Assembly (NCBI GenBank): GCA_944372675.1
Contig: CALVZW010000001.1
Location: 137-64,136 of the forward strand
Direction: 5' to 3'
DNA length: 64,000 nucleotides
From: an uncultured Clostridia bacterium
GTDB taxonomy: Bacteria > Bacillota > Clostridia > Christensenellales > UBA1242
Of this stretch, positions 5,244 to 62,580 are shown piece by piece. The notes beneath the pieces were generated by a model. The model was not told the DNA's origin, ran no database searches, and worked only from the letters and a program-made list of their open reading frames with translations. A program made the translations under genes and the position numbers. Position 1 is the first letter of the stretch, and every line of letters starts with the position of its first letter.

Positions 5244-5275
5244 AAAAAGCAATACTTTTTGTATTGCTTTTTCTA
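5244..5275 (+). terminator. intrinsic terminator of lysS
   Basis: Stem AAAGCAATAC (5246-5255) pairs with GTATTGCTTT (5261-5270) around a TTTTT loop, followed by a T-rich tail. Confidence 0.7.
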
Positions 5276-10474: not shown

Positions 10475-10532
10475 TTAAATCACAAATGAAAATGGTTTTT
10501 ACCTAAATAAGTATTATATTTTTTAACAATAA

Positions 10533-10580
10533 TAAAAAACGCTTTCAAGGGGTAATTTTTGAAAGTGTTTTTTATTTTTT
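10533..10580. terminator. bidirectional intrinsic terminator between convergent genes
   Basis: Stem ACGCTTTCAA (10539-10548) pairs with TTGAAAGTGT (10559-10568, one G-U). It is flanked by an A-run upstream and a T-run downstream. Confidence 0.6.
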
Positions 10581-10600: not shown

Positions 10601-12295
10601 TTATTTTTCTCTAAAAACTTTTAGTTGCAAAAACAGTGATTTATATAAATAATCTATAAAAACAACCAATGATGCAACGATTGGTATTATAATATAAGGC
10701 AAATAATCGATAAAATTACTAAGATTTAATCCGCATAAAAAGTTAACTGCAAAGGTCAATAAGACTATTACGGCAAAAATTATTAATCTTGGTAACCACT
10801 CTTTATTTATATTATAATAACCAATTAAACTAAATTCTTTTTTAACTGCAATAATTGCATAAACAATAGGGTAAATAATTGAACAACCTAAAATACCTAT
10901 TATTAAATAAGAAATTGATTGTAACTCAGTTAATGATTCTTTAAAAGCAAAATAGCATATAAACATTAATACAACCAATGTTGCGTATGATAAAATTGAT
11001 GTTAATAAATTAGTTTTATTTATGTAAACTTTATGTGATTTTAGTTTTGTGTTGTTTTTTCTATACCTTTGGACTTTTATACCATTTAGTTCACAATTAT
11101 CTATAAAATCTGTTAAAGTTGGTAAGTCATTTTCAATTTTATCTTCTTTAACATTGTCTTTGTAATTGATTTCGCTTTTTGTAATAATTGGTTCAATAAA
11201 TTGTTTTTTAGTAGATTGCGATGAATTGTAAAAATTATAATTATTAACAATATTGTTACTTCTTTTTAAAAATATGTTAGCTTTTAAATTATCATCAACT
11301 TTAACTTTATCTTTGATTAAATAAGAATCAACTTTGCTTTTTTTGACGGTTTCATTAGATTCGATACTTGGTTCGCCAAAAAGATTTTCATTGTATTGAT
11401 TACTGAGGTCTTGTTTTGAAAAGGGTAGTAAATCATTATTGTTATCAATTTTTAAAGTTGACTTATTGCTTACCATAGATTGATATTCATTCATGTACTT
11501 GCTTTTTTCATTTGGATTAAGCAAAATGCCTTGGTCAGTGTTTTCTAAGCCTGTTTTTATTACCTCATTGTTATCAGTTTTTAACTCATTTGAAGTGTTA
11601 TCTTTTTCAATCATTTCGCCAAATATGCTATCAAAGTCTATAGCATCTTCTTTTAAGTCATTATATGACAAAGTTGTTGGCTTATATAGTAGACTTGTTG
11701 AAGCGTCTTGTGGTATAATTTGTTTGTCGGATAATAATACGGCATCAGTTTTGTCATAAACTCTAAAATCATTTACTTCTTCATTTTCAGTTGAATTTTT
11801 ATTTTCAAATGATTTTTCATTTACGTTGTTTAAATTAGTATTTGCAGAGGATTGATTTAAATAATCGAGTATTGAATAATTTGAAATTGTTTCATCCTGT
11901 ATTTCTTCAGTTGGGGTAGGGGAAGAAGTATCAGTGCGTTTAGAATGTTCAATTGTGTTAAAGAAATCTGGTTGAATTGCTAAAGTTGATGAAACATTTT
12001 TACTTACATTTTCATATTTTTTAAATTCTTCAAAATTGTATGGATGTTCTTCAACATATTTTAAACCTTTTTCAGTTAATGCACTGTACCTTCGTTTGCC
12101 ACCAATTTCACTATTTTCCCAATAGGAAGTAATAAAACCTTCAGACTCTAATTTATGTAGACTACTATATAAACTTGGTAATTTAACATCTAATTGATTA
12201 AAAGTTAAATTTTTTATAGATTTAATAATTTCAAGCCCATACTTATTCCCATCTTTTAAAGTATTTAGTATGATTGAATTTATTTTTCCTCTCAT
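10601..12295 (-). CDS. PadR-family winged-helix regulator fused to a long linker and a C-terminal 4-TM membrane domain
   Basis: The N-terminal ~90 aa (NTLKDGNKYGLEII...LPSLYSSLHKLESEGFITSYWE...GGKRRYSALTEKG) match the PadR wHTH pattern. The middle is N/S/T/E-rich. The last ~150 aa contain four hydrophobic helices. Confidence 0.7.
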   Translation of the reverse strand: MRGKINSIILNTLKDGNKYGLEIIKSIKNLTFNQLDVKLPSLYSSLHKLESEGFITSYWENSEIGGKRRYSALTEKGLKYVEEHPYNFEEFKKYENVSKNVSSTLAIQPDFFNTIEHSKRTDTSSPTPTEEIQDETISNYSILDYLNQSSANTNLNNVNEKSFENKNSTENEEVNDFRVYDKTDAVLLSDKQIIPQDASTSLLYKPTTLSYNDLKEDAIDFDSIFGEMIEKDNTSNELKTDNNEVIKTGLENTDQGILLNPNEKSKYMNEYQSMVSNKSTLKIDNNNDLLPFSKQDLSNQYNENLFGEPSIESNETVKKSKVDSYLIKDKVKVDDNLKANIFLKRSNNIVNNYNFYNSSQSTKKQFIEPIITKSEINYKDNVKEDKIENDLPTLTDFIDNCELNGIKVQRYRKNNTKLKSHKVYINKTNLLTSILSYATLVVLMFICYFAFKESLTELQSISYLIIGILGCSIIYPIVYAIIAVKKEFSLIGYYNINKEWLPRLIIFAVIVLLTFAVNFLCGLNLSNFIDYLPYIIIPIVASLVVFIDYLYKSLFLQLKVFREK

Positions 12296-12378
12296 TTTTA
12301 AAACCTCAATTTATTAAATATATTCTACATTTTTTTATAGTATTTGTCAATTAAATACTATAATTTTATAAAAAATTT

Positions 12379-12436
12379 ATAATACACCATATTTAGTGTA
12401 TTATAAACTCATAATACACAATATAAGGGGTAATAT
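12379..12436. repeat. palindrome doublet, locus A (two 26-bp units in 32-bp phase)
   Basis: ATAATACAC-CATATTTA-GTGTATTAT at 12379-12404, linker AAACTC, then ATAATACAC-AATATAAG-GGGTAATAT at 12411-12436. The second unit contains the SD (AAGGGG) and abuts the ATG at 12437. Confidence 0.9.
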
Positions 12437-13117
12437 ATGATTGATTACATACAAAGAACTGCAAGAAAAACACTTTCAATAATAATTAATGAAAAAGGTG
12501 AAGTAACTGTAAAAGCACCTAAAAGAATGTCAGAAAGTGATATCTATAAATTTGTACAATCAAAAGAAAAATGGATTAACTCAAAAGTTAATTCAATTAA
12601 ACAGCAAAATGAAATTAATAATGATTTATTTAATTATAAATGTATTTTGTTTTGTGGCAAAAAATATAGAGTTATAAAAGATACAAAGGCAAAAGATATT
12701 CAATTGGAAGAGGGTATAATAACCATAAAAAAACTTTCTTCATTAAAAAGGGAAGTGCGAGTTTTAGAAAAATTTTTGAAAAACAAATGTTTAGAAATAG
12801 TAGGGCAAAGACTTAAATATTTTTCAAATATAATGCAGTTAGAGCCACAAAAAGTAGTTTTAATGAATTCAAAAAGAAAGTGGGGCACTTGTGATAGTGA
12901 CCAAGTAATATCTTTTAATTGGCGAATAATTATGTTAACACCTAATTTAATTGATTATGTAATTGTACACGAGTTATCGCATTTAATTGAAATGAACCAT
13001 TCTCCAGCATTTTGGGCAATAGTCAGTGCGGTATTACCAAATGTAAAACAATTGAGAAGCACTTTAAAACAATGTAATTTTATTTTACAACAATTTAGAG
13101 AAATTCCTATTGATTAA
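12437..13117 (+). CDS. YgjP-like zinc metallohydrolase (DUF45/M48-like)
   Basis: 226 aa with the C-terminal motif VIVHELSHLIEMNHSPAFW (HExxH) typical of the YgjP family. Confidence 0.75.
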   Translation: MIDYIQRTARKTLSIIINEKGEVTVKAPKRMSESDIYKFVQSKEKWINSKVNSIKQQNEINNDLFNYKCILFCGKKYRVIKDTKAKDIQLEEGIITIKKLSSLKREVRVLEKFLKNKCLEIVGQRLKYFSNIMQLEPQKVVLMNSKRKWGTCDSDQVISFNWRIIMLTPNLIDYVIVHELSHLIEMNHSPAFWAIVSAVLPNVKQLRSTLKQCNFILQQFREIPID

Positions 13118-13150
13118 TATATAATTTAACAGCAATATTAAACAAAATTA

Positions 13151-13184
13151 AGCAGAATATATTGTGGTATTCTGTTTTTTTTTA
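13151..13184 (+). terminator. intrinsic terminator of the ygjP-like gene
   Basis: Stem CAGAATA (13153-13159) pairs with TATTCTG (13168-13174), followed by T9 at 13175-13183. Confidence 0.75.
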
Positions 13185-13765
13185 CATGTAAAATTTATTA
13201 TGTGTTTAAAATTTGGTGTAGGGCGATATTGTTTTTAATATATACATATCTATTCGCTAAAGACAACTTTAGCGAATAGATATAGCAAAAATACCCTAAA
13301 AATAAGATTTTTTTCACAATATTTGTTAAATTTTATACATTATTTATTAAATTTTTTTTATTATATTTAAATAAAATTCTTTGTTTATTTTCAAATATTT
13401 TTGCATTTAATTTTGCATTGTAATCGATTTTTAAAAATTTTAATGAACTTTTATTCGTTTTTATTTTAAAATTTTGCTATAACATTTTTTATTTAATTTG
13501 TTTTATTTTTATAATACTATTAAAAAATATTTTCATAATACCATTTTCATATAATTAAATTTATTTGTAATATATAATACATTGATTATACATTTAAGTT
13601 TGTATAAAATTTATAAATATTTTTATAAATTGAAATTTTGTATTTGTAATTATTATAAGTTTAATTAACATAAATTTTTTTATGCTTGTTGAATTAGTTT
13701 TTTATATTATTATTAAAATTTAATATCAATAATTTAAATAATTAATTTAATATATTTGTATTTAA
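13185..13765. other. gene-free, extremely AT-rich intergenic desert
   Basis: No ORF of 60 aa or more in any frame between 13118 and 13800. This is the longest non-coding stretch in the window. Confidence 0.8.
13246..13283. repeat. perfect 38-bp palindrome (17-bp arms, 4-bp centre)
   Basis: ATATCTATTCGCTAAAG-ACAA-CTTTAGCGAATAGATAT with arms verified base by base. There is no adjacent U-run on either strand. Confidence 0.9.
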
Positions 13766-13794
13766 TTGATAAAAATTAAAAAATTTGATATAAT
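13766..13794 (+). promoter_or_regulatory. sigma-A type promoter with extended -10, positioned for a leaderless recombinase mRNA
   Basis: -35 TTGATA at 13766-13771, a 17-bp spacer, then TGATATAAT at 13786-13794. The ATG is at 13801 with no SD. Confidence 0.55.
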
Positions 13795-13800
13795 CAATGT

Positions 13801-14880
13801 ATGGATAATAATGAAACATACATTCAGCAAAGAGATGCAAAAAATATAATTAAATTAAGAAAATTAAGGGATGAATTACCTGTTTTTTGTTCAGAATTTT
13901 TTATAGGAATTGAAAATACAACAAGTGTTTTAACTAGAATTGCCTATGCACAAGATTTAAATGTATTTTTCAAGTTTTTAACACAAGAAATACCATATTT
14001 TGAGAACAAAGATATTCGCTTAATCGCCCTTTCCGACTTAAATCATGTAACTGCTGAAAATATAGAATTATTTTTAGACTATTTAAATTTATATTATAAC
14101 AATGGTAAAAAAGTTACAAATAATGATAAGGCAAAAGCAAGAAAACTTGCAACAATACGTAGTTTATTTAAGTATTTTTACAAAAAAAATAAAATTGAAC
14201 AAAATGTTGCGCAAAAAGTTGATATGCCTAAAATTTATAATAAGACTATTGTACGATTAGAGCCTAATGAAGTTGAAAATTTATTAAATATTGTGGATAA
14301 TGGTGATGTTTCATTAACTAGACAACAAAAAGATTTTCATAAGCACACCAGAACGCGCGATTTAGCAATTTTAATGTTATTTTTAGGTACTGGTATAAGA
14401 ATTAGCGAATTAGTTGGAATAAATATTAAAGATATTAATTTTGATGAAAATTCATTTGTTATAACTCGTAAAGGCGGTGACCAATATATACTTTATTTTT
14501 CAAATGAAGTTGCAAACGCCCTACTCCATTACAAAGTGCTTAGAGAACAAATAAAGACTAAAAATCCTCAAGATAATGATGCATTTTTTCTATCATTACA
14601 AAATAAAAGAATTACTACAAGAGCAGTACAAAATTTAGTCAAAAAATATAGTAAAATCGCATCTCCATTAAAGAAAATATCACCGCATAAATTAAGAAGT
14701 ACTTATGGAACAAATTTATATCAACAAACGCACGATATTTATATTGTTGCAGATGTTTTAGGACATAAAGATGTTAACACTACTAAAAAACATTATGCTG
14801 CCATTAGTGAAAATATAAGAAAAGATGCTTCAAAACATATTAAATTAAGAAATAATGATGAAGATAATTATGATGACTAA
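13801..14880 (+). CDS. site-specific tyrosine recombinase, Xer family (long, XerS-like architecture)
   Basis: 359 aa with catalytic pattern GIRISEL (Arg I), HKLRST (His/Arg II) and LGHKDVNTTKKHY (His, Tyr). The N-terminal SAM-like core-binding domain is longer than in typical XerC/D. Confidence 0.8.
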   Translation: MDNNETYIQQRDAKNIIKLRKLRDELPVFCSEFFIGIENTTSVLTRIAYAQDLNVFFKFLTQEIPYFENKDIRLIALSDLNHVTAENIELFLDYLNLYYNNGKKVTNNDKAKARKLATIRSLFKYFYKKNKIEQNVAQKVDMPKIYNKTIVRLEPNEVENLLNIVDNGDVSLTRQQKDFHKHTRTRDLAILMLFLGTGIRISELVGINIKDINFDENSFVITRKGGDQYILYFSNEVANALLHYKVLREQIKTKNPQDNDAFFLSLQNKRITTRAVQNLVKKYSKIASPLKKISPHKLRSTYGTNLYQQTHDIYIVADVLGHKDVNTTKKHYAAISENIRKDASKHIKLRNNDEDNYDD

Positions 14881-15076
14881 TTGTTTTACAGTTTTTAATT
14901 TAAATAATAATTAAAATTTAATTTTATAATCTATTAAATTTTATTTATTAAAAGTTTGTAAAATTTACAAATTTTATTATGTTTAATTATTATTTTTAAT
15001 TTTTAAACATTTTTTTGTGAATATAAAGGTATTTGATAACATATTTAAATAAACATATTTTTAATCAAAAAAACTT

Positions 15077-15090
15077 AGAACAATTGTTTG
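15077..15090. promoter_or_regulatory. LexA (SOS/Cheo) box upstream of lexA
   Basis: AGAACAATTGTTTG compared with the Firmicutes consensus CGAAC-N4-GTTCG. It ends 7 bp upstream of the lexA -35. Confidence 0.6.
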
Positions 15091-15097
15091 ATAATGA

Positions 15098-15126
15098 TTG
15101 ACAAAAAGTTTTTTATATGGTATACT
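15098..15126 (+). promoter_or_regulatory. lexA promoter
   Basis: -35 TTGACA at 15098-15103, a 17-bp spacer, then -10 TATACT at 15121-15126. Confidence 0.65.
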
Positions 15127-15154
15127 CAAGAAAAATACAAAGGAGAATATAATT

Positions 15155-15787
15155 ATGGCAAAAAATAATCAAAAAATTGACTATATGCTAGATTATATCG
15201 CATCTTACTCAAAAGATAATGGATTTCCCCCAAGCATACGAGAAATTCAAAATAAATTTAATTTTAAGTCGACTTCTACGGTGTCATATTATCTTAAGAA
15301 ATTAGAAGAAAGAGGCGATGTTGTTAGCAAAGGTAGAAAAAATAGAACATTAACAATTTCGCCAAGATATTATGATGAGCATCCGGAATTATCAAAAAAA
15401 TTCTTAGATAAAGATTTTAATTTAATTCCCCTACTCGGTTGTATAACTGCTGGTCAACCAATTTTAGCTGAAGAAAATTATGATGAATCATTTTTTATTC
15501 CAACTAACTTGTTTAGAGGTGATAACTTATTTATGCTTACAGTAAGTGGTGAAAGTATGATTGAAGCAGGTATTTATGATGGGGATAAGATTATCGTTCG
15601 TAAACAAGAAACAGCCGAAAATGGTGAAATTATTGTTGCTTTAATTGAAAATTCTGCTACAGTTAAAACTTATTATAAGGAAGAAAATAGAATTCGTTTG
15701 CAACCCGAAAACTCAACAATGCAACCGATGTACTTTGATAATATTAGTATTTTAGGTAAAGTTATTGGTTTAATTAGAAAAATGTAA
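15155..15787 (+). CDS. lexA: LexA repressor
   Basis: Start at MAKNNQ, with SD AAGGAGA upstream. The ORF-track start at 15098 lies in the promoter. It has an N-terminal wHTH and a C-terminal S24 peptidase with the GESM serine and the VKTY lysine. Confidence 0.92.
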   Translation: MAKNNQKIDYMLDYIASYSKDNGFPPSIREIQNKFNFKSTSTVSYYLKKLEERGDVVSKGRKNRTLTISPRYYDEHPELSKKFLDKDFNLIPLLGCITAGQPILAEENYDESFFIPTNLFRGDNLFMLTVSGESMIEAGIYDGDKIIVRKQETAENGEIIVALIENSATVKTYYKEENRIRLQPENSTMQPMYFDNISILGKVIGLIRKM

Positions 15788-15841
15788 TACACAAATTGTT
15801 GTGTATTATAAAAGTAGAATACACAATATAAAGTGTATTCT
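15784..15841. repeat. palindrome doublet, locus B (overlaps the lexA stop; the second unit doubles as a terminator)
   Basis: GTAATACAC-AAATTGTT-GTGTATTAT at 15784-15809, linker AAAAGT, then AGAATACAC-AATATAAA-GTGTATTCT at 15816-15841. The stem extends to 12 bp (15813-15844) and is followed by T8. Confidence 0.9.
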
Positions 15842-15990
15842 ACTTTTTTTTAAAAATTTTACAATTATAAATTTATAAAATTAAAGTAAATAAATACTGT
15901 ATTATATCTAATAATTTTATTTTAATTATCAATTATATTTAATTATATATTGATAAAAATTATTTGAATAATTATATTAAAATTATTTAA

Positions 15991-16962
15991 TTATTTAACA
16001 AATTGTTTATATTTTTGTAATACAAATTGAATTATATTTTGTTCATCTTGTAAATTTTCATTATTCATAAATATAATATTTTTTGTGTATCTTTTATACC
16101 AAGTTATTTGTCTTTTAGCATAATTTCGAGAATGTTGTTTAACTTTTTCAATAGCATTGTTTAATGTATCATTGCCATTAAAATAATCAAAAAATTCTTT
16201 ATAGCCAATTGCATATGACACTTGTAGTTTTTTATTTAATTTGTTTTGCAAATCGAAAATATATTTTGCTTCTGTTAATAGTCCATTTTCTAACATTTCA
16301 TCAACTCGTGAATTAATATCATTATATAATTTTTCTCTATCCTTATTTAAAAAAATTATAAAATATTCATAAGGTGAATTTTCAAAATTATTTTTGTTTT
16401 GTCTTATGTTAGATAATTTTTCATTTGTGGAATGACAAATTTCTAATGTTCTAATAATTTTTTTGGTATCGTTAATGTTTAATTTTTTTGCCGTTTGTTC
16501 ATCTACTTTTAGCAACAAATTATATAATGCTTTTTTCCCCTGCTCTTCAAGAATTTTATTTAAACATTTGCGATATTCTTCGTCTTTTTGACATTGTGCA
16601 AAATCATAAGGGAATAAAAGGCTTTCAATATATAAACCGGTTCCACCTACTATTATTGGCAGTTTTTTATTTTGATATATTAAATTTATTTGTTTAACTG
16701 TATCATTTTTAAATTCTGCAGTACTATATTCTTCTTCAATATTTTTTATGTCAATATTGTAATGAGGATATTTTTTTAGCAATTTTTCATCAAGTTTTGC
16801 AGTTGCAATATTACATTGTCTATAAATTTGCATTGAATCGGCAGAAATTAAAGAACAATTTAAAATATCATAAAGTTTAAGTGCTACTTTTGTCTTACCT
16901 ACACCTGTTGGGCCTGCTAATATAAGCAAAGGTATTTTATTTATAGTACTCGTTTGAACCAT
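15991..16962 (-). CDS. miaA: tRNA dimethylallyltransferase
   Basis: 323 aa with P-loop GPTGVGKT and the miaB-mutS-mutL-miaA synteny. Confidence 0.9.
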   Translation of the reverse strand: MVQTSTINKIPLLILAGPTGVGKTKVALKLYDILNCSLISADSMQIYRQCNIATAKLDEKLLKKYPHYNIDIKNIEEEYSTAEFKNDTVKQINLIYQNKKLPIIVGGTGLYIESLLFPYDFAQCQKDEEYRKCLNKILEEQGKKALYNLLLKVDEQTAKKLNINDTKKIIRTLEICHSTNEKLSNIRQNKNNFENSPYEYFIIFLNKDREKLYNDINSRVDEMLENGLLTEAKYIFDLQNKLNKKLQVSYAIGYKEFFDYFNGNDTLNNAIEKVKQHSRNYAKRQITWYKRYTKNIIFMNNENLQDEQNIIQFVLQKYKQFVK

Positions 16963-19106
16963 TTTTCAATGTCCTTTCTATCAATTTTGATTGCAATTGG
17001 TCGGCCGTGTGGACAAAATAATTCTGTATTATTTTCAAGTACTGCATCCACTAACACACATATTTCGTTTTCACTCATATCGTTCCCCGCTTTTATAGCC
17101 GCTTTGCACGCCCTTTGCATTAAATATTCATCAAAGTGCAAATTTTCCGCTACTTTTAATTCTTTGCCAATTTGTGATAGTATGCCGTCAAAAAATTGTT
17201 TGCAATCAAAATTTCCACCTAAGATATGAGGTACGGCAGATATTTTGTAAGATTTATCACCGAACTCTTCTAATTCAAAACCTAAATTATTAAATTGCTC
17301 TAAGTTTTGTTCGATAAAAGATTTTTCTTGGCTATTCACATTTAACATATATGGAATTAATAATGGTTGTGTTGCTTTTTCTTTATTTCCGTAAAATTTT
17401 TGCAACCTATCATAAATTATTCTTTCGTGTGCTGCGTGTTGGTCTATTAAAATAGCACTTTCACCACTTTCGACAAACAAGAATGTATTAAATAATTTTC
17501 CTACAACTTTGTAACCATTTTTTAACAATGATAAACTTTGTTCTTCATCTTCATCTTCAACATAACCGCGATATTGAAACTCTGGTTTTAATCTTTGATT
17601 AAAGGATGTATCATTATTTAAATTTTTGCTTGAAAATGCTTCAATACCAAGCGACATATTTTCTTCTTCGTTTACATTGACATTTTTAATTTCTTTAATT
17701 TTATCATCATTATTATCAAATATTTTTAGTTTATATATAGACGGTAATTCTTCATTATTATTTTCAATATTATTATTTTCATTTAATGAATTACTTAATG
17801 AAGTTTGTATATTGTTATTATTTATTTCATTGTTGTAATTTAAATTGCTAACATTGTAATTAGAGTTGTATTGTAAATCTTCATTAATATTATTTTTATC
17901 TTGAACCATAACATTTTCAAAAATTTTGTTATCATTAAAAATGGCATTTTCACTCGCAAACTTATGCTCGCTTGAATTAGAATATTTTAAATTTTGATTT
18001 GAGTTGTTTTCAAATAAGTTATCAAAATTTTTAAAAGCGTCTTGTTGTTCAGTTTGAATTAATGGTTCATTTTTTAGCGATTTTATTGGTTTATCAATTA
18101 AATCAATAGTATATAAATCTTGATTAGATAAAATCGTATTTGATACTGTTCTATAAACAAATGAGAATATAGAACTATTATCATCAAATCTTATTTCAAG
18201 TTTTGTTGGATGCACATTTACATCAATGCTTTCAGGGTTGACATCAAGAAACATTACAAAAAATGGAAATTGCCCTTTCATAAGGTGTGTTTCAAACCCT
18301 TTGTTTACTGCAACTGATATATTAGTATTTTGTACACATCTTTTATTTACAATTAAGGTTTGATATGTTCGGTTTGCTTTTGTAAAACTTGGTTTTCCAA
18401 TATAACCATATAAGTGCATTTGCTCTCTTTTACTATCAAACTTTAATAGATTTTGTAATGTATCAATTCCATATACTGCAAAAATTGCATCTTCTAAGTT
18501 TTTACCTGAACTATAATAAATTTGTTTACCGTCTACAATATATCTAATTGAAGTATTTGGGTTTGATAAGATAAGTCGCTGTACAATTGTTGTAATTTCG
18601 TGTTCTTCTTGTTTTGGCTTTTTTAAAAACTTTTTTCGTGCAGGCACATTATAAAACAAATTTTTAACAGAAACTTTTGTCCCAAGTGGTGCTGAGCATC
18701 TTTCAAAAACTTTAATTTCCCCGCCATCCAATTCAATTTTGGTTGCCAAGTCGTCATCTTCAATTTTAGTTAAAAGTTCAATTTGTGAAACTGAGGCAAT
18801 CGATGCTAATGCTTCGCCACGAAAACCTAGTGTTAAAATGGCTTCCAAATCTTCAACCGACTTAATTTTACTCGTTGCGTGGGGTAAAAATGCAGTTTTA
18901 ACATATTCGTTCTCAATGCCACAACCATCATCGATTACTGTCATTTCATCTATGCCACCATTTTTTATTTCAATGGTAATGTTTTTTGCTCCTGCATCAA
19001 TACTATTTTCAGTCAACTCTTTAATGACTGATGCCGGTCTTTCAACTACTTCGCCTGCAGATATTTTATTGTAAATTGTTGAATCTAGTACTTGTATTTG
19101 TGCCAT
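16941..19106 (-). CDS. mutL: DNA mismatch repair protein MutL
   Basis: GHKL ATPase motifs (ELTENSIDAGA, DDGCGI), an N-rich linker, and a C-terminal domain with DQHAAHERIIY. Confidence 0.93.
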   Translation of the reverse strand: MAQIQVLDSTIYNKISAGEVVERPASVIKELTENSIDAGAKNITIEIKNGGIDEMTVIDDGCGIENEYVKTAFLPHATSKIKSVEDLEAILTLGFRGEALASIASVSQIELLTKIEDDDLATKIELDGGEIKVFERCSAPLGTKVSVKNLFYNVPARKKFLKKPKQEEHEITTIVQRLILSNPNTSIRYIVDGKQIYYSSGKNLEDAIFAVYGIDTLQNLLKFDSKREQMHLYGYIGKPSFTKANRTYQTLIVNKRCVQNTNISVAVNKGFETHLMKGQFPFFVMFLDVNPESIDVNVHPTKLEIRFDDNSSIFSFVYRTVSNTILSNQDLYTIDLIDKPIKSLKNEPLIQTEQQDAFKNFDNLFENNSNQNLKYSNSSEHKFASENAIFNDNKIFENVMVQDKNNINEDLQYNSNYNVSNLNYNNEINNNNIQTSLSNSLNENNNIENNNEELPSIYKLKIFDNNDDKIKEIKNVNVNEEENMSLGIEAFSSKNLNNDTSFNQRLKPEFQYRGYVEDEDEEQSLSLLKNGYKVVGKLFNTFLFVESGESAILIDQHAAHERIIYDRLQKFYGNKEKATQPLLIPYMLNVNSQEKSFIEQNLEQFNNLGFELEEFGDKSYKISAVPHILGGNFDCKQFFDGILSQIGKELKVAENLHFDEYLMQRACKAAIKAGNDMSENEICVLVDAVLENNTELFCPHGRPIAIKIDRKDIEKWFKRVL

Positions 19107-19109
19107 TTT

Positions 19110-21704
19110 TTACTCCTTTATCATATTTTGCATAGTTTGTATAGTTGTTAATGCTTCAATTGGTGTCAATAAATTTACATTTATTGAATTAATATAAGCA
19201 CTTAACTTATTAAGTTTATCATTCTCTTTTTCTTGTTGCGTTTGAGGTAGTTCAATCTTGTTTAGTTTTACTTGGTTTAAGTTTAATGCTTGTAAAATTT
19301 CTTTAGCACGAGATATTACGGCATTTGGCAATCCTGCCATACTTGCAACTTCAATACCAAAACTTCGATTTGCACCGCCTTTAATAATTTTTCTTAAAAA
19401 TATAACAGTATTGTCAAATTCTTTTACAGATATTTGATAATTTTTTACCCCTTCTAGTTTGCCTTCGAGTTCTGTTAGTTCGTGATAGTGTGTTGCAAAT
19501 AGTACTTTAGATTTTGTTTGTTTAGATAAGTATTCTACAACTGCCCAAGCAATACTTAAGCCATCGTAAGTACTTGTTCCCCTACCAACTTCGTCAAAAA
19601 CTATTAAACTATTGTCAGTTAAATTTGCTAATATGTTCGATACTTCAAGCATTTCAACCATAAATGTGCTTTGACCAAATGCTAAGTCATCACTTGCACC
19701 AATACGCGTAAAAATTCTATCTGTTATTGCAATTTTTGCTGAACGAGCAGGAACAAATGAACCAATATGTGCCATTAAAACTATTAAAGCAACTTGTCTC
19801 ATATAAGTACTTTTACCAGCCATATTTGGCCCTGTAATTATTAATATTCTATTTTCGCCATTATCAAGATAAGTATCATTTGGAACAAATCTTTCATCTT
19901 TAAGAGTTTGTTCTACAACGCAATGCCTACCATCAATAATTTCTGTTTCTTTAATAGATTTGTTTATAAGTGGTTTGCAGAAATTATTTTCAAGTGCAAC
20001 ATATGACAATGACATCAATGAGTCAATCATTGCAAGAACTTTTGCAGTACTTAAAAGTGAAGGTATATTTGAAATAAGTTTTTCTCGTATTTGTTCAAAA
20101 ATTTCTTGCTCAAGTTTTAACTGCATTTCTTCAGCATTTAAAATTTCTGCTTCCAAAAATTTAAGTTCATCTGTTATATATCTTTCGCTGTTTGCAAGTG
20201 TTTGTTTTCGTTGATATCTTTCTTTAGGAATAAATTGAATTTGTGATTTTGGTATTTCTATGAAATATCCAAAAACTGAGTTGTAAGAAATTTTTAAAGT
20301 CTTTATGCCTGTAAGATTTTTTTCTTCATTCTCAATTTTAATAAGTTCAGTTCTTCCACCTGTTGCTTTTTCGCGTATTTGGTCAAGTTGTTGGTTAAAG
20401 CCTTTTTTGATAAAACCGCTATCACGAGTGTTAGTTGGAGAATTTTCATCAAAAGCACCATCCAACATTTCCACTAAATCTTCAAAATCTACAATTTCTT
20501 TTGTTGCAAATTTAAATAAATTGCTATGTAATGTTGCTACGACTTGTTTTATTTGTGGTATTTTTGAAATCGCAATTTTTAAATCGTTACATCCCCTTGG
20601 CGATATTGTTCCATAAGAAATTTTACCGCATATTCTTTCAATATCAGTTATCTCTCTTAATGTTTGTGAAATACTTTCACGAGCCAAAGTGTTGTTAATT
20701 AATTCTTCAACTGCATTAAGTCTTTCATTAATTTGAAGTTCATCTTGTAAAGGTTGTTCCACCCATTGACGCAATAATCTAGCACCCATAGATGTTTTTG
20801 TTTTATTTAAAACCCAATATAGCGAACCTTTTGTTTTTCTATCTTTCATTGATTCAACCAATTCAAGATTCCTTCTAGTATTAATATCTAGTTGCATAAT
20901 GCTTTTATCTTTTTCAACAACAATTTTTGTAATGTTGCTCATTGCTCTTTTTTGTGTTTCTTCAAGATATGAAAGCAAAGCCCCTGCTGACATTATTGCA
21001 TATTTGTTGTTACCTAAATCGGTTTTATCTAATGATAAAATATTTAGTTGTTTGCATATTTGTTTAGTAGCCCTTTCTAGTCCGTAAGCCCAATCATAAT
21101 ATTCATTTGCTTTTGGAGCAATACCGACTTTGTAACTTGTTAAGTTTGAATAAAACTCTCTAACTCTTGAATTACAAATAACTTCGCTTGGCTTTATTCT
21201 AGTAAGTAAGTCATTGATTTTGTCAATAGATAGTCCTTTATCACTTTTTAAAGCATACATATCGCCAGTTGTTATGTCTACATAACTAGCACCATAACCG
21301 CCGTCATCGCAGTATAGCGACATAATAAAATTGTTTTTAGTGTCGTCTAGTAATTCCGTTTCCATTATTGTCCCTGGTGTAACAACTCTAACAACATCTC
21401 TAACAACAAGCGGTTGCCCCTGTTTTGGTTGAGTTAACTGTTCGCATATAGCCACTTTGTAGCCTAATGAAATTAATTTAGTAATGTAGTTATTGCTTGA
21501 ATGAAATGGAATTCCACACATAGGCGCTTTTTTATTATCTCCACAATCTCGTGCAGTTAGAGTTAGTCCAAGCACTTTAGAAACTTCTAGCGCATCTTCA
21601 AAAAACATCTCATAAAAATCACCTAATCTATAAAACAGGATACAATCTTTGTATTCTTCTTTCTTATTTAGGTACTGTTGCATCATTGGTGATAATTTAC
21701 TCAT
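19110..21704 (-). CDS. mutS: DNA mismatch repair protein MutS
   Basis: 864 aa. It has an N-terminal mismatch-binding region (GDFYEMF) and a Walker A GPNMAGKST. The ATHYHEL motif is also present. Confidence 0.95.
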   Translation of the reverse strand: MSKLSPMMQQYLNKKEEYKDCILFYRLGDFYEMFFEDALEVSKVLGLTLTARDCGDNKKAPMCGIPFHSSNNYITKLISLGYKVAICEQLTQPKQGQPLVVRDVVRVVTPGTIMETELLDDTKNNFIMSLYCDDGGYGASYVDITTGDMYALKSDKGLSIDKINDLLTRIKPSEVICNSRVREFYSNLTSYKVGIAPKANEYYDWAYGLERATKQICKQLNILSLDKTDLGNNKYAIMSAGALLSYLEETQKRAMSNITKIVVEKDKSIMQLDINTRRNLELVESMKDRKTKGSLYWVLNKTKTSMGARLLRQWVEQPLQDELQINERLNAVEELINNTLARESISQTLREITDIERICGKISYGTISPRGCNDLKIAISKIPQIKQVVATLHSNLFKFATKEIVDFEDLVEMLDGAFDENSPTNTRDSGFIKKGFNQQLDQIREKATGGRTELIKIENEEKNLTGIKTLKISYNSVFGYFIEIPKSQIQFIPKERYQRKQTLANSERYITDELKFLEAEILNAEEMQLKLEQEIFEQIREKLISNIPSLLSTAKVLAMIDSLMSLSYVALENNFCKPLINKSIKETEIIDGRHCVVEQTLKDERFVPNDTYLDNGENRILIITGPNMAGKSTYMRQVALIVLMAHIGSFVPARSAKIAITDRIFTRIGASDDLAFGQSTFMVEMLEVSNILANLTDNSLIVFDEVGRGTSTYDGLSIAWAVVEYLSKQTKSKVLFATHYHELTELEGKLEGVKNYQISVKEFDNTVIFLRKIIKGGANRSFGIEVASMAGLPNAVISRAKEILQALNLNQVKLNKIELPQTQQEKENDKLNKLSAYINSINVNLLTPIEALTTIQTMQNMIKE

Positions 21705-21715
21705 TTCTTCCTCCG

Positions 21716-23047
21716 TTAATTTAAAACTTCTCCATAAAGTTGATTGTTTTCAATTTTTGTAATTTTAACATCTACAAAAGATAATTCTCGTAAGTCATTG
21801 CATTGAACTATTATGGTTTTCCCGCTATCAGTTTTAACTATATAACAATCTAAGTCTTTTGTATCTAATTTCCTTTCAACAATACAGTTTTCAACCTTGC
21901 CAATCATTTCATTATTTTTTTGTAGCGAAATTTCTTTTTCTAATTTTAATAAAGCATTTACGCGTTTGTTCTTTTCTTCTTGACTAACTTGTCCATCCAT
22001 TGTGGCTGCTGGCGTACCTTGTCGTGGTGAATACATAAAAGCAAATATTCCATTATATGAAACTGTTTTTACTAAATCGCAAGTCATATTAAAATCTTCT
22101 TCAGTTTCTGTTGGAAAGCCAACGATAAAATCACTTGTTAAAGAAACATTAGGTATTTTTTCTTTTATTTTATTAATTGTTTCCAAGTAGTGTTCGACTG
22201 TATATTTTCTATTCATCAATTTTAGTATTCTATTGCTTCCCGATTGTACCGGTAAATGTATTGCTTTTGAAATTTTGGGATTGTTTGCTATTACATCTAT
22301 GACATCATCAGTTAAATCTTTTGGATGCGAAGTCATAAACTTTAATTTAAATTCATAAGGCAAGTCTGCAATTTTTTGTAATAGCATTGCAAATGATATT
22401 CCATTGCTAAGGTCATTTCCGTAAGAATTTACATTTTGTCCTAACAATGTAATAACTTTATATTTTCCCGTTTTTAGTAAAGATTCTACTTCTTCAATAA
22501 TATCTTTTGCATCTCTACTTTTTTCTCTACCTCGTACATACGGAACAATGCAATATGTACAAAAGTTGTTACAGCCATACATAATGTTTACCCAACCGTT
22601 ATAGCCACTTGTCCTATACATAGGCACATTTTCGTTTATGTATACTTCATCTTCAATAGACTTAATTCTTTTGTGATTTAAATTAAAATCATCAAGAAAT
22701 TCGCCAAATTTGCTAAGGTTATGTGTTCCAAAAATAATGTTTACAAAGGGAAACTTTTTTTGTATTAAATCGGCCATTTCAGGCTGTTGACTCATACATC
22801 CACACACAGCAACAACTAGATTAGGATTTAATTTTTTTATTGGTTTAACTGCCCCAATATTTCCTAATATCTTTTCTTCCGCAGATTTTCTTATGCAACA
22901 AGTATTAAAAACAATAACATCTGCTTGGTTTTGGTTTTGAGTTTCAACATATCCTCTTTCTTCCAAAAATCCAGCAAGTTTTTCTGATTCATGTACATTC
23001 ATTTGACATCCATAGGTCAAAATGTGATAATATTTTGTGTTATTCAT
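21716..23047 (-). CDS. miaB: tRNA-2-methylthio-N6-dimethylallyladenosine synthase
   Basis: Start at MNNTKYYHILTYGCQMN (23047). It has a radical-SAM CNNFCTYC motif and a C-terminal TRAM-like domain. Confidence 0.9.
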   Translation of the reverse strand: MNNTKYYHILTYGCQMNVHESEKLAGFLEERGYVETQNQNQADVIVFNTCCIRKSAEEKILGNIGAVKPIKKLNPNLVVAVCGCMSQQPEMADLIQKKFPFVNIIFGTHNLSKFGEFLDDFNLNHKRIKSIEDEVYINENVPMYRTSGYNGWVNIMYGCNNFCTYCIVPYVRGREKSRDAKDIIEEVESLLKTGKYKVITLLGQNVNSYGNDLSNGISFAMLLQKIADLPYEFKLKFMTSHPKDLTDDVIDVIANNPKISKAIHLPVQSGSNRILKLMNRKYTVEHYLETINKIKEKIPNVSLTSDFIVGFPTETEEDFNMTCDLVKTVSYNGIFAFMYSPRQGTPAATMDGQVSQEEKNKRVNALLKLEKEISLQKNNEMIGKVENCIVERKLDTKDLDCYIVKTDSGKTIIVQCNDLRELSFVDVKITKIENNQLYGEVLN

Positions 23048-23170
23048 AATAATCCTTTTATGTTTAATTATATCATTTTTTGTAATAAAATAGCAAGTCA
23101 AAATACAAAATTCATAAAAAAAACAGTTAATATTTTACATATTTAAAATGATTATGCAAATAATAGTTTA

Positions 23171-25390
23171 ATGATAAATGTATTAAAAAAAGTTTTTAAA
23201 GTCGGCATAATTATTTTTGCTATCTTAGTAGTAGCAATTAGTTGTTGTTTAGGTTATTATTACATAAAAATTTCTAGCAAATATGACAACATAACTTTTG
23301 ATAAAGACAAGTTAATAACAGCAACTTCTTATGCTGAAATATTAGATAGCGAAAACCAAGTTGTAAGCAATGCTTCAATTGATGGAAGAAAAACCATTGC
23401 TTTTGATGAAATACCAGAACATACTATTAATGCTTTTATTGCAATTGAAGACCAAAACTTTTATAAGCATAATGGAATTAATTATAAAAGAATTTTAAAA
23501 TCAATTTTTGTTAATTTAAAATCTGGATATGCTAAGGAAGGAGCATCAACGATATCACAACAACTTATTAAAAATACGCATTTAAACAATGAAAAAACAT
23601 TGGAGAGAAAACTTAAAGAATTTTTTTTAACAAAAAAACTAGAAAAATCTTTTACTAAAAATGAAATAATGGAAGCATATTTAAATGTCATTTATTTTGG
23701 CAATAGTTGCTTTGGCATTGAAAATGCAAGTAATTTTTATTTTGATAAATCAGCAAGTGAACTAGACATTGCAGAATCTGCTATGCTTGCGGGTATTATC
23801 AAGTCCCCTAAGTTATATTCCCCTATTTTGCACGAAAATGATTGTAAGGCAAGACGCAATTTAGTTTTAAATCAAATGGCAAAATGCAATTATATAACTA
23901 GTGAACAAGAAAAAACTGAGTCGCAAAAGGATATTATTCTTAGCAAAAAGACCATTAATAATTGCCTTGAAAGAAATGTTTTGAATTTTTCTGCAAAAAC
24001 TCTTAATTTGGCAGAAAAAGATTTGATTAATTCAAAACTAAAAATTAAAACATATATAAAACCTAGTTTACAAAATTTCATAGATAATCTTGATTTAAGC
24101 ATTTTTAATTATGATAACAATATGCCAGAATATGCAATAATTATTGAAAACAATAAAAATGGCGGTATTGAAGCAATACGGACTTCCGAAGCCGTCAATC
24201 TTGAAGATACGTTAAGACAACCTGCTTCTTGCTTAAAACCATTTTTAGTCTATGCTCCTAACTTCGAAGATGGAAAGATAAACTTACTTACAAAGGTTGA
24301 TGACGAAAAAACTACTATAGCAGACTTTAGTCCTAAAAATGCGGGAAATAAATATAAAGGCAATATTTCTGTTAAAGAAGCCATAAGCACTTCATCAAAT
24401 GTTTGTGCAACAAAATTGCTGAACTACTACGGCATTAATAAAGCAAAAAAGACTGCTGAAAAGTTTGGTTTTAAATTTACAAAAAATGATAATCATTTAG
24501 CACTTGCTTTGGGTAGTTTATATAATGGGTGCGATTTGCTAACTTTGACTAACGCTTATGCAACTTTGGCTAATGGTGGTAAAAAACCAAACATAAGTGT
24601 TGTTGAAAGCATAAATGGACTAAATGACATACCTTTATACAAGAATGAAAGCAATAAACAAACTGTTATTTCAAATGAAACAGCATTTTTACTAACAAAA
24701 GCATTGCAAGATTGCACAAAAAATGGTACTGCTAAAAAATTGAAAGAATATGCGAATGTCGTAGCATCAAAAACCGGAACAAATGGTGCAATTAACAGCA
24801 ACAAAAATACCGATGCTTATTGCATTAGTTATTCGAAAGACTACACTGTTTGTGTTTGGATGGGTATTAAAAATAATGATGCCGAACTTTTACCGCAAAA
24901 TTATAATGGAGGCAATCAACCTGCTAGCATTTCAAAAAAAATATGGGATTATCTCAAGCCAACTCAAAAGTTTGAAATACCTAGCGGAATAGTTAAACTA
25001 AGGATTGATAAAGAAAACTACGATAATAATAACACTGTCAAACTTGCTACAAAAGAAACATTAGATAGATATGTAATTGAAGAGTATTTTAATAAAAAAT
25101 ATGCCCCTACTCTTTATGCCGATACATTTACGGCAGTTAGCAAACCAATTTTTGAATGTAAAGTAAGCGAAAAAAATGTAATATTAAATATTGAAACAAA
25201 CAAGCACACAAGTTATGAATTACACAGAATATCAAATGGCAAAGATGAATTATTAGATACAATTAAATCACAAAAAAATCAATATATTTATGAAGATGAA
25301 AATCTTAGTCCAAATTTTTATGAATATTATATAATTGCGGAAAAAGGCGAAAGTAAAAAAAGTGATATTATTAAAGTTTTAGTTGAATGA
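23171..25390 (+). CDS. class A penicillin-binding protein (glycosyltransferase + transpeptidase)
   Basis: N-terminal TM and GT51 motifs (EDQNFYKHNGI, GASTISQQL). Transpeptidase motifs SCLKP, SSN and KTGT, plus an extra C-terminal domain. Confidence 0.88.
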   Translation: MINVLKKVFKVGIIIFAILVVAISCCLGYYYIKISSKYDNITFDKDKLITATSYAEILDSENQVVSNASIDGRKTIAFDEIPEHTINAFIAIEDQNFYKHNGINYKRILKSIFVNLKSGYAKEGASTISQQLIKNTHLNNEKTLERKLKEFFLTKKLEKSFTKNEIMEAYLNVIYFGNSCFGIENASNFYFDKSASELDIAESAMLAGIIKSPKLYSPILHENDCKARRNLVLNQMAKCNYITSEQEKTESQKDIILSKKTINNCLERNVLNFSAKTLNLAEKDLINSKLKIKTYIKPSLQNFIDNLDLSIFNYDNNMPEYAIIIENNKNGGIEAIRTSEAVNLEDTLRQPASCLKPFLVYAPNFEDGKINLLTKVDDEKTTIADFSPKNAGNKYKGNISVKEAISTSSNVCATKLLNYYGINKAKKTAEKFGFKFTKNDNHLALALGSLYNGCDLLTLTNAYATLANGGKKPNISVVESINGLNDIPLYKNESNKQTVISNETAFLLTKALQDCTKNGTAKKLKEYANVVASKTGTNGAINSNKNTDAYCISYSKDYTVCVWMGIKNNDAELLPQNYNGGNQPASISKKIWDYLKPTQKFEIPSGIVKLRIDKENYDNNNTVKLATKETLDRYVIEEYFNKKYAPTLYADTFTAVSKPIFECKVSEKNVILNIETNKHTSYELHRISNGKDELLDTIKSQKNQYIYEDENLSPNFYEYYIIAEKGESKKSDIIKVLVE

Positions 25391-25581: not shown

Positions 25582-25615
25582 AAAAAATCACGAAATATAT
25601 TCGTGACTTTTTTAA
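25582..25615. terminator. bidirectional intrinsic terminator (PBP gene / rpmA)
   Basis: A-run, stem TCACGAA (25588-25594) pairing with TTCGTGA (25600-25606), then a T-run. Confidence 0.7.
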
Positions 25616-26506: not shown

Positions 26507-26590
26507 TTAGTTTCCCTCCTATAGTATTAAGACTCGCTGAATAAGGCGACTTGCGTACTTAAAAAGCCCACTCCAAGCGGTACTGCAGTA
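26507..26590 (-). promoter_or_regulatory. L21 (rplU) leader, ribosomal-protein autoregulatory 5' UTR
   Basis: This is the only GC-enriched, structured non-coding segment in the window. It sits between a consensus promoter and rplU, the position of the Firmicutes L21 leader. Confidence 0.55.
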
Positions 26591-26619
26591 AGTATATCTA
26601 AATTAACTCAATTTGTCAA
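26591..26619 (-). promoter_or_regulatory. rplU operon promoter
   Basis: On the minus strand: TTGACA (26619-26614), a 17-bp spacer, then TATACT (26596-26591). Confidence 0.7.
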
Positions 26620-28017: not shown

Positions 28018-29118
28018 ATGAAAATTTGCGGAATAATATGCGAACTTAATCCGGCACATAACGGACATAAGTTTTTAATTGAAGAAGTAAAACGGAAAAC
28101 TAATTGTGATTTAGTCATAGCAATTATGAGTGGAAATTTTGTTCAGCGTGGCGAACCTGCTATATTTGACTACCAAACTCGTGCACAAATGGCTATAAAT
28201 GTTGGTTTTGATGCTGTTATTTATTTGCCAACGGTTTACACTTTAAATTCGGCTGAAAATTTTGCTGGGCAGACTTTGTTTGTAGCAAGTCAATTTAATT
28301 TAGATTATTTAGCATTTGGAGTAAACTCTAATGAAGAAATTTTATATAAAATTAATGATTTAAAACAAAATGTTGATTTTAATAATTTAATTAAAAACAA
28401 TTTATCAAAAGGCTTTTCATTTTCAAATTCGTTTAGTAAAGCAGTTTATGAAAAATTGCATACAAATATAACTGCTAATGATATTTTAGCACTAGAATAT
28501 TTGTCAGTTATTGATGATAAAAAATATAATTTTACACCAATTATTATCAATAGAAATAATGAAATATCAGCAACAAAAATACGAAAGTTAATTTTGACAA
28601 AGCAATTTGACAAACTTTCTAATATGATTGATGAAAATAATTTAAATTTAATAAAAAAATCTAAAGTCAATAACTATAACAAATTTAATATGGTTATTTA
28701 TTCCAACATAATATCAAGTACGAAAGAAACCTTAGTAAATATAAAAGATATGCGTGAAGGAATTGAAAACAAAATATACAACGCAAATTCCAATACACTA
28801 TATGGTTTAAATAAGCAAGTAAAATCAAAAAGATACAATCAAAAATATTTAAATAGATTGTACTTAAATATATTATTTGGCATAACAAAAGATTCTAATG
28901 TTATGCTTCCCTATTTAAAAATTGTTGCAGTAAAAAATAAAACTGTTTTAAATAATTTAAAGTGTAAATTGCCTTTAATTACAACTTTAAAAAATAAAAA
29001 TATTTTAAATGAAAATAGCATTTATGATTACGATATCTTAAGTTCAAAAATTTATAATTCCGTTAATAAAATAAATTCCAATGCTTTCCCATATCAAAAA
29101 ATTATAATACACAATTAA
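28018..29118 (+). CDS. tmcAL: tRNA(Met) cytidine acetate ligase (YlbM/UPF0348 nucleotidyltransferase)
   Basis: The N-terminus GIICELNPAHNGHKFLI...MSGNFVQRGEPA matches the YlbM/TmcAL pattern. Confidence 0.8.
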   Translation: MKICGIICELNPAHNGHKFLIEEVKRKTNCDLVIAIMSGNFVQRGEPAIFDYQTRAQMAINVGFDAVIYLPTVYTLNSAENFAGQTLFVASQFNLDYLAFGVNSNEEILYKINDLKQNVDFNNLIKNNLSKGFSFSNSFSKAVYEKLHTNITANDILALEYLSVIDDKKYNFTPIIINRNNEISATKIRKLILTKQFDKLSNMIDENNLNLIKKSKVNNYNKFNMVIYSNIISSTKETLVNIKDMREGIENKIYNANSNTLYGLNKQVKSKRYNQKYLNRLYLNILFGITKDSNVMLPYLKIVAVKNKTVLNNLKCKLPLITTLKNKNILNENSIYDYDILSSKIYNSVNKINSNAFPYQKIIIHN

Positions 29119-29161
29119 TTGCGTATTATAAAAATATAATACACTACATTTAGTGTATTAT
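29104..29161. repeat. palindrome doublet, locus C (overlaps the last codons and stop of tmcAL)
   Basis: ATAATACAC-AATTAATT-GCGTATTAT at 29104-29129, linker AAAAAT, then ATAATACAC-TACATTTA-GTGTATTAT at 29136-29161, followed by a T-run. Confidence 0.9.
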
Positions 29162-35204: not shown

Positions 35205-35262
35205 ATAATACACAACATATTGCGTATTATATTTTTATAATACTCAATATCTAATATTCGAA
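35205..35262. repeat. palindrome doublet, locus D (second unit decayed)
   Basis: ATAATACAC-AACATATT-GCGTATTAT at 35205-35230, linker ATTTTT, then a left arm ATAATACTC at 35237-35245 with no matching right arm. It overlaps the stop of the 86-aa gene. Confidence 0.8.
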
Positions 35263-35511
35263 TCTAAAATCGCCATTTAATCTTTCGAAAAATCTTATTA
35301 AATCAAAATCTTCTTCTTCAACATCTTGTTCAAATTCATTAAACAATTCTTTTGCCCTAACTTCGTCAATGACATAAAATTTTTGAGTGTTGCCATTATC
35401 ATCTCTTGCCCTATATAAATTAAGACTATTAAAAAAGTTATATGAAAGCAAACTCATTATTGTTCCGATTAAAAATAAACCAATTATAAAACATTTTAAA
35501 ATACTATTCAT
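35251..35511 (-). CDS. small membrane-anchored hypothetical protein
   Basis: 86 aa with an N-terminal TM helix and an acidic C-terminus. Its start overlaps the stop of the upstream gene (TAATG). Confidence 0.5.
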   Translation of the reverse strand: MNSILKCFIIGLFLIGTIMSLLSYNFFNSLNLYRARDDNGNTQKFYVIDEVRAKELFNEFEQDVEEEDFDLIRFFERLNGDFRFEY

Positions 35512-39611: not shown

Positions 39612-39669
39612 ATAATACACTAAATATGGTGTATTATTATTTTATAATACACCATATTTGCTTATTATA
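39612..39669. repeat. palindrome doublet, locus E
   Basis: ATAATACAC-TAAATATG-GTGTATTAT at 39612-39637, linker TATTTT, then ATAATACAC-CATATTTG-CTTATTATA at 39644-39669. The right arm of the second unit is decayed, and its centre is almost the reverse complement of the first unit's centre. Confidence 0.88.
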
Positions 39670-62539: not shown

Positions 62540-62580
62540 AAAAACAAACTTGAATAAATTAAGTTTGTTTTTTTGTTTTT
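62540..62580 (+). terminator. intrinsic terminator of murC
   Basis: Stem AAACAAACTT (62542-62551) pairs with AAGTTTGTTT (62561-62570), followed by a T-run. Confidence 0.7.

Follow-up and report, generated by a model that had tools for sequence, protein, structure and literature searches.

Phased pairs of NrdR-type boxes upstream of a ygjP-like gene and at further non-reductase loci of an uncultured low-GC Clostridia bacterium

Results

Organization of the region between the padR-like and ygjP-like genes

The window analyzed in this work is a stretch of 64,000 nucleotides from an uncultured Clostridia bacterium (contig CALVZW010000001.1), and the locus of interest, locus A, is the intergenic segment 12296–12436 that separates two divergent genes. 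A preliminary description of the sequence had placed a palindromic doublet there, in a control region between a PadR-like regulator and a YgjP-like hydrolase, and both gene assignments are confirmed by matches to PF03551 and PF01863. The segment holds two 26-nt palindromic units of the general layout ATAATACAC-N8-GTGTATTAT, whose starts lie 32 nt apart and which together span 12379–12436 (pair A). The features of the locus are as follows.

10601–12295, minus strand: PadR-family gene, 564 aa (PF03551, E 1.5e-14), with an N-terminal winged-helix domain
12322–12350, minus strand: padR-like promoter, TTGACA, 17 nt, (TG)TAGAAT, conserved in 8 species
12344–12349 and 12367–12372, plus strand: alternative ygjP promoter predicted from the sequence, TTGTCA, 17 nt, TATAAA
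12378–12383, plus strand: candidate −10 element of ygjP, TATAAT, a T joined to the five bases with which unit 1 begins; 7 of 8 orthologues have it
12379–12404: unit 1 of pair A, ATAATACAC CATATTTA GTGTATTAT, with perfect 9-nt arms and an 8-nt spacer (9-8-9)
12384–12399: NrdR-type box 1, ACACCATATTTAGTGT, 6 of 6 conserved positions
12405–12410: gap between the units, 6 nt, which gives a box linker of 16 nt and 32 nt from centre to centre
12411–12436: unit 2 of pair A, ATAATACAC AATATAAG GGGTAATAT, with 2 mismatches against the consensus
12416–12431: NrdR-type box 2, ACACAATATAAGGGGT, 5 of 6 conserved positions (A at position 11)
12425–12430, plus strand: AAGGGG, read from the sequence as the Shine-Dalgarno element of the ygjP-like gene; 6 nt separate it from the ATG
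12437–13117, plus strand: gene of a YgjP-like HEXXH metallohydrolase, 226 aa (PF01863, E 1e-54), whose start codon agrees with the orthologues

At 564 aa the PadR-family protein is unusually long. Behind the winged helix comes a long low-complexity and hydrophobic C-terminal part, with an Asn/Ser-rich middle, and the hydrophobic C-terminal part suggests that the PadR-like protein may be a membrane-anchored regulator. Beyond the ygjP-like gene lies an AT-rich spacer of 684 bp (13118–13800) that is free of ORFs and of strain-variable length (720 bp in L001, 848 bp in L002); inside it, a perfect palindrome with an 18-bp stem, TATATCTATTCGCTAAAG...CTTTAGCGAATAGATATG, is found at 13245–13284.

Alignment of locus A from eight species shows that the block conserved on the left side of unit 1 represents the promoter of the padR-like gene itself and not an operator. 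Pair A adjoins this promoter without overlapping it, about 28 nt upstream of its −35. The gene regulated by the pair is likely to be the ygjP-like one: with either of the candidate ygjP promoters, box 1 would come to lie at or just past the transcription start, which is a normal position for a repressor.

Unit 1 is the perfect copy that had been described, and unit 2 ends, again as described, on the base before the ATG at 12437, with AAGGGG inside it. The doublet had also been said to cover both the Shine-Dalgarno sequence and the start codon; the former does lie within unit 2, but the latter only abuts it. In the orthologues of locus A from seven further species, unit 2 and the ATG are separated by 0 to more than 45 nt, and the Shine-Dalgarno sequence is seen within unit 2 in the source species and in the orthologous locus L007. 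The overlap at ygjP is incidental and not the conserved feature, and because the distance varies among species, the proposed occlusion of the Shine-Dalgarno sequence is unsupported as a conserved mechanism. The predicted fold of the ygjP leader (−14.6 kcal/mol, z −2.6), which in its minimum-energy form pairs most of the Shine-Dalgarno sequence, is modest and would need a transcription start upstream of unit 1. Nor does pair A have the features of an intrinsic terminator: it stands upstream of the gene, and a terminator role misfits the locus because no T-run follows either unit.

Comparison with the NrdR operator

With up to three mismatches allowed, the 26-nt pattern occurs 10 times in the window, where 0.18 occurrences would be expected by chance. 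For a pair-specific pattern the corresponding figures are 8 matches (at 6 loci) and 0.00, and a profile search of the window (nhmmer) returned exactly six pairs and no other match. The doublet at 12379–12436 is confirmed as real and far above chance.

The NrdR site has been described as two partially palindromic 16-bp boxes separated by a linker of 15–16 bp, with highly conserved C4, A6, A8, T9, T11 and G13 (PMC13584703); both boxes are required, and the linker is fixed in length and not in sequence (PMC13584703; PMC12051234). The 16-nt cores of the pair units, which read ACAC-N8-GTGT and lie 16 nt apart, fit this operator. At locus A the two partially palindromic 16-bp boxes are those at 12384–12399 and 12416–12431, and all the pairs seen share a linker of 16 bp. 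In a set of 43 instances, drawn from 9 loci of about 10 species, the conserved positions have family-wide frequencies of 0.79–1.0; counting those that the search pattern left free, the values are 0.95 (A6), 0.88 (A8), 0.86 (T9) and 0.91 (T11) in box 1, and 0.84 (C4), 0.79 (A6), 0.93 (A8), 0.86 (T9), 0.86 (T11) and 0.84 (G13) in box 2. As a control, a variable-gap scan of a very large metagenome collection gave 68 stretches, almost all of them chance matches, and such chance matches to the same outer pattern mostly carry 2–4 of the 6 conserved positions. The 6-nt gap between the units is constant and its sequence variable, and this includes five pairs found without the fixed-gap pattern; a constant linker length with a variable sequence is what a helical-phase constraint predicts. 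The published regular expression for box pairs is satisfied in the window only by A and B, and is unusable as a test since it is unspecific in DNA of 27% GC (3.7 chance matches per window).

A profile built from the six window pairs alone found as its best match, with weak E-values (0.06–1.3), the box-16-box operator of nrdD in four of four Lachnospiraceae loci (L125–L128, from two assemblies of named species and two metagenome contigs), where the operator stands immediately before the −35 and −10 of nrdD. In L020 and L038, two other Lachnospiraceae MAGs, a match to the exact pair pattern is likewise found immediately upstream of a gene for an ATP-cone NrdD. In L125–L128 (about 1–2500) the order TPR protein, HflX, nrdD is conserved, and the NrdR operator abuts a TTGAC-type −35. 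Since these canonical nrdD operators lack the extended arms ATAAT...ATTAT, the arm extension is specific to the pair family of the window, and it may be related to hairpin formation. Unit positions 2 and 25 tend to covary (TA 30, GC 5), which hints at selection for hairpin formation as well. A literature search with the arm sequences brought up nothing but unrelated matches to shRNAs and primers.

No nrd or nrdR gene is present in the window or in its 10-kb extensions, and pair A, flanked by the padR-like and ygjP-like genes, does not stand at the promoter of a reductase or nrdR operon. Searches for NrdR and NrdD by regular expression and tblastn over all fetched loci found only the nrdD of unrelated Lachnospiraceae. 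The scan of GTDB genomes described below gave no reductase-adjacent match with the exact pattern from MAGs of the clade, which could be due to a 15-bp linker, to mismatches or to incomplete bins. The best 120 NrdD homologues listed are 74–99% identical to the Lachnospiraceae query, and so do not come from the AT-rich clade.

Further pairs in the window and their conservation

At least eight pairs lie near locus A, six in the window and two just to its left, and none adjoins an nrd gene. Those other than pair A are located as follows.

15784–15841: pair B, where lexA and miaA converge; unit 1 includes the stop codon of lexA, and a T-run follows unit 2
29104–29161: pair C, between convergent genes; the final 15 nt of a nucleotidyltransferase gene (28018–29118) are part of unit 1
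35205–35262: pair D, between a convergent acyl-CoA ligase gene (end 35077) and an 86-aa minus-strand ORF, whose stop codon (35251–35253) is in unit 2
39612–39669: pair E, between convergent murG and a Sel1-repeat gene; the right arm of unit 2 is degenerate
55241–55298: pair F, between rpsO (55358–55609, minus strand) and pnp (53134–55224, minus strand), 16 nt upstream of the pnp ATG
17756–17815 and 20349–20406 of L121: two further pairs in the left 10-kb extension of the window

The two pairs of the left extension are about 7 and 9.6 kb from the window start. One lies between convergent transporter and dehydrogenase-like genes and the other in the leader of a subtilisin-type peptidase gene, where the outer arms are degenerate and both boxes have 6/6 core positions. 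The right 10-kb extension contains no pairs. D and E, seemingly single copies, have a degenerate second unit present in register. Five of the eight pairs are away from promoters, and no sequence beyond the 58 nt is common to the pairs. The 86-aa ORF next to pair D (35251–35511, minus strand) has no family match; the part that encodes its C terminus is conserved in L008, L031 and L040.

All GTDB representative genomes were scanned with a pattern that matches all six window loci. Of the 46 stretches recovered, about 37 belong to some dozen low-GC MAGs, which carry the labels uncultured Clostridia, Eubacteriales or Lachnospiraceae; two more are the nrdD operators of L020 and L038, and the remaining ones look like chance. 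The comparison between species covered six of the eight pairs: all six window pairs (A–F) recur at the same orthologous intergenic spots in about 10 related low-GC Clostridia MAGs, whose loci are syntenic with the window at 65–80% nucleotide identity. That the same orthologous spots recur at this level of identity indicates that the pairs are selected cis-elements and not mobile repeats, and because the flanks diverge while the boxes stay, purifying selection can be argued and recent mobile repeats ruled out. Further conserved pair sites of the clade are located at spoVT|ftsY, rluA-like|yunB, dusB|hup and tpiA-gpmI and downstream of yloV, and a clade genome has about 7–10 pairs. In one related contig (L013, CAZSGM010000003.1, 2964–3180) an assembly gap in the form of an N-run separates two copies of the same rpsO-pnp doublet, which is probably a scaffolding artefact caused by the palindromes.

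Convergent junctions and hairpins

Pairs B, C, D and E, together with G, H and others elsewhere, are situated between convergent genes, and the promoter-operator reading is inapplicable to most pairs for this reason. For B and C, folding predicts two hairpins with a U-run behind each of them, for transcripts of either direction (z −7 to −8), so that the features of a stable hairpin and U-run terminator are present at these two junctions. Four convergent junctions with a pair have no ordinary terminator, whereas four without a pair each have a bidirectional terminator of their own, consisting of an A-run, a unique hairpin and a T-run (5244–5272, 10531–10576, 25582–25612 and 62541–62575). Since such terminators sit only at the convergent junctions without pairs, the pairs occupy the terminator niche.

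A hairpin role alone leaves unexplained the shared stem and loop sequence, the fixed spacing and the often broken stem of unit 2. The pairs may thus combine two roles, as protein-binding sites that would also serve as weak terminators or roadblocks. A search against Rfam, with the gathering threshold over the whole window and an E-value threshold at the locus, returned only a ribosomal protein L21 leader elsewhere and a meaningless miRNA match. This leader (RF00559, 36.4 bits) is at 26520–26594 on the minus strand, upstream of rplU-ysxB-rpmA.

Clustering of the pairs around a GC-skew switch

In window coordinates, the eight pairs all fall in the range from about −9.6 kb to +55 kb. When coding-strand effects were separated from position effects over the roughly 90 kb covered, the replication-linked GC skew was positive from the left extension up to about 16 kb and negative from there through the right extension; the maximum of the cumulative skew is at 15817, inside pair B. 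The dominant gene orientation also flips from plus to minus in 12000–24000 of the window. In a contig of a related MAG, CALVIT010000005.1, the skew likewise flips between A and B/C. Judged by the skew, the switch looks like a replication terminus.

A gene for a XerS-like tyrosine recombinase (359 aa) is located at 13801–14880 on the plus strand; its best NCBIfam match is XerS, with 190 bits, below the cut-off of 267. Its position at the skew switch is that of XerS/difSL modules. Searches with the B. subtilis dif and an approximate difSL sequence gave nothing convincing as a dif-like site. In the related MAGs nearly all exact matches of the whole genome are in the syntenic neighbourhood of the window; for example, one contig of 153 kb has 5 sites within 46 kb and none elsewhere. 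Where a strong box and a weak box can be clearly told apart, the pairs on one side of the flip share a direction, and in cases in which F is found on the opposite side it is turned round. Pair A is oriented like D–F, despite its place to the left of the skew maximum.

Discussion

The interpretation we favour is that the doublet would be a tandem NrdR-type operator, made of two 16-bp boxes with a 16-bp linker, each box being extended to a 26-nt palindrome. In the mechanism described for NrdR, both boxes are occupied simultaneously by a tetramer of the protein that carries ATP and dATP; NrdR proteins moreover bind the boxes of other species, and near-identical synthetic boxes (ACACAATATATAGTGG) are bound at about 40 nM (PMC13584703). 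The pairs should be bound if the organism has NrdR. At locus A this complex would be placed on the ygjP-like promoter and start, or shortly behind them, and would repress ygjP when dATP is plentiful; the padR-like promoter beside the pair would probably not be directly occluded. Repression by NrdR is the best reading of this locus because the pair is placed at or just after a plausible ygjP promoter, and from the sequence comparisons we regard it as reasonably probable that NrdR binds pair A and represses ygjP. The pairs in promoters or leaders (ygjP, pnp and the subtilisin-type peptidase gene) would act as operators, and those at convergent gene ends would probably be bidirectional terminators or roadblocks as well. 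For the pairs in general, both the binding of NrdR and an effect on transcription are what we infer. NrdR had been suggested in the preliminary description, and as far as the sequence architecture is concerned this is borne out by the consensus boxes, the 16-bp linker and the cross-detection of nrdD operators, but with at least eight pairs the frame of a single gene proves too narrow. The label of UTP pyrophosphatase for E. coli YgjP, which had been mentioned in this context, is annotation-level only.

The terminator-like properties of the junction pairs raise the question of an explanation confined to RNA, in which the pairs would be bidirectional terminators at convergent junctions and an SD-hiding 5′ leader at ygjP, with no part for NrdR. 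It would account for the double hairpins with U-runs at B and C, for the want of ordinary terminators at exactly those convergent junctions that bear a pair, for the pairing of most of the Shine-Dalgarno sequence in the minimum-energy fold at A, and for the joint changes of positions 2 and 25. We nevertheless consider it unlikely, as ordinary terminators share neither stem nor loop sequences, whereas A8 and T9 of the loop and the stem bases of the pairs are conserved in sequence across loci and species, with almost no compensatory change. The stem of unit 2 is often broken (pair 7–20 is C-A in 22 of the 43 instances), the 32-nt spacing is invariant, A and F have no U-run, the overlap with the Shine-Dalgarno sequence is not conserved, and there is no match to an Rfam family. 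Rather improbable, too, is that the pairs are terminus sites with an architectural or polar fork-pausing function, bound by NrdR or by another protein such as the PadR-like one, the regulation of ygjP being incidental. Here the clustering of eight pairs around the skew flip, the recurrence of this flip in CALVIT contig 5, the XerS-like gene, the near confinement of exact matches in related MAGs to the syntenic neighbourhood and the partial sorting of strong and weak boxes by side of the flip are set against a terminus that is derived from skew over about 90 kb with no dif-like site found. The orientation of the pairs could simply follow that of the local genes, pair A does not fit cleanly, no terminator-type protein was identified, and the recognition of a perfect NrdR motif by a PadR protein would have to be a coincidence.

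The neighbouring gene itself suggests a reading as operator of the PadR-family regulator, either for autoregulation or for control of ygjP, and the adjacent, divergent arrangement of the padR-like and ygjP-like genes in eight species agrees with it. PadR proteins bind dyads with an 8-nt spacer, a spacing that is shared here; the half-sites, however, read ACAC/GTGT, such pairs are also present at seven or more loci that lack a PadR gene in the vicinity, and the pair is upstream of the padR −35 and not over the promoter, all of which makes this reading very improbable. A classical PadR dyad was rejected for locus A, as ATGT-N8-ACAT is absent from 12296–12436 (the window has 47 against 64.7 expected, i.e. 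no enrichment), and the earlier view of PadR binding as a weak alternative agrees with this result. As for selfish or neutral repeats (REP, BIME or MITE-like) or Xer-like recombination sites, the extragenic palindromic doublets, often between convergent genes, do recall REP/BIME, the 9-8-9 layout resembles the core site of a tyrosine recombinase, and an assembly gap splits the duplicated pair in L013. But there are only about 7–10 copies per genome and not hundreds, held at fixed orthologous positions across species with no presence/absence pattern, and the spacers differ between sites yet keep the NrdR-specific A6, A8, T9 and T11; recombination between sites would be blocked because the spacers differ. 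Orthologous conservation largely refutes this reading, to which we assign hardly any probability, and mobile REP/MITE elements were rejected given the same orthologous spots at 65–80% identity and nothing shared beyond 58 nt.

Returning to the NrdR-type operator, the window pairs can be set beside known systems. The NrdR operators of E. coli nrdAB, nrdHIEF and nrdDG, of S. coelicolor nrdRJ and of L. monocytogenes nrdDG have the same two partially palindromic 16-bp boxes, the same core ACAC-wAtATaTw-GTGT with C4, A6, A8, T9, T11 and G13, and the same 16-bp linker of variable sequence, corresponding to three helical turns from centre to centre; pair A, like them, is placed at a promoter or beside one. 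Unlike these operators, of which a genome has 1–3, the window pairs are found away from reductase operons, most of them at the 3′ ends of convergent genes, number at least 8 in the genome region, clustered in about 65 kb, and have arms that extend to 9–10 bp (TATAATACAC). Enterobacterial REP/BIME elements are likewise palindromic doublets between convergent genes, and can act on mRNA 3′ ends and bind DNA-bending proteins; REP sequences, however, occur in hundreds of strain-variable copies without an NrdR-like core, whereas the pairs described here are few, positionally conserved and phased. CIRCE, the HrcA operator (9-N9-9 inverted repeat), is similarly a long inverted repeat that is thought to act both as DNA operator and as RNA structure, but it differs in sequence, occurs singly and not in phased pairs, and is confined to heat-shock promoters. 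The Ter/RTP system of B. subtilis shares with the pairs the arrangement of two adjacent imperfect dyads, one strong and one weak, in several copies around the terminus, here a putative one, and next to the gene of a small winged-helix regulator. It has no sequence similarity to them, polarity and terminus location are tentative in the present case, and no RTP homologue was identified. NrdR-type sequences outside nrd operons are also represented by the boxes at topA in Pseudomonas and at dnaA in Shewanella; those are single and of doubtful function (bioRxiv 10.1101/2025.03.28.645925), whereas full phased pairs conserved across species are found here.

The pairs before pnp and before the gene of a putative nucleotide hydrolase fit the logic of nucleotide-pool control: PNPase, the product of pnp, makes nucleoside diphosphates, which are the substrates of the reductase. 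The pairs at convergent junctions and the clustering near the likely terminus point beyond promoter repression. A wider proposal, which we put forward as a speculation with little probability in its favour, is that these low-GC Clostridia have put phased NrdR-box pairs to use at about 10 conserved non-reductase sites of the terminus region, where they would be dATP/ATP-dependent roadblocks replacing terminators between convergent genes and possibly an NrdR sink coupling reductase expression to replication, with ygjP and pnp as new members of the regulon. Such a position-dependent sink would be comparable with datA, the sink for DnaA.

NrdR has been described as reductase-specific (PMC9110341). 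In the newest genome-wide analysis, of E. coli and P. aeruginosa, paired boxes were found only at reductase operons, other genes having at most single boxes of doubtful meaning (bioRxiv 10.1101/2025.03.28.645925), and the large surveys examined only the regions upstream of reductase operons (PMC12051234). Against this literature of reductase-only paired boxes, the conserved phased pairs at about 10 non-reductase loci are new. As NrdR is described as reductase-specific and paired boxes as reductase-only, its role would widen, and conserved paired boxes outside reductase loci would extend what NrdR does.
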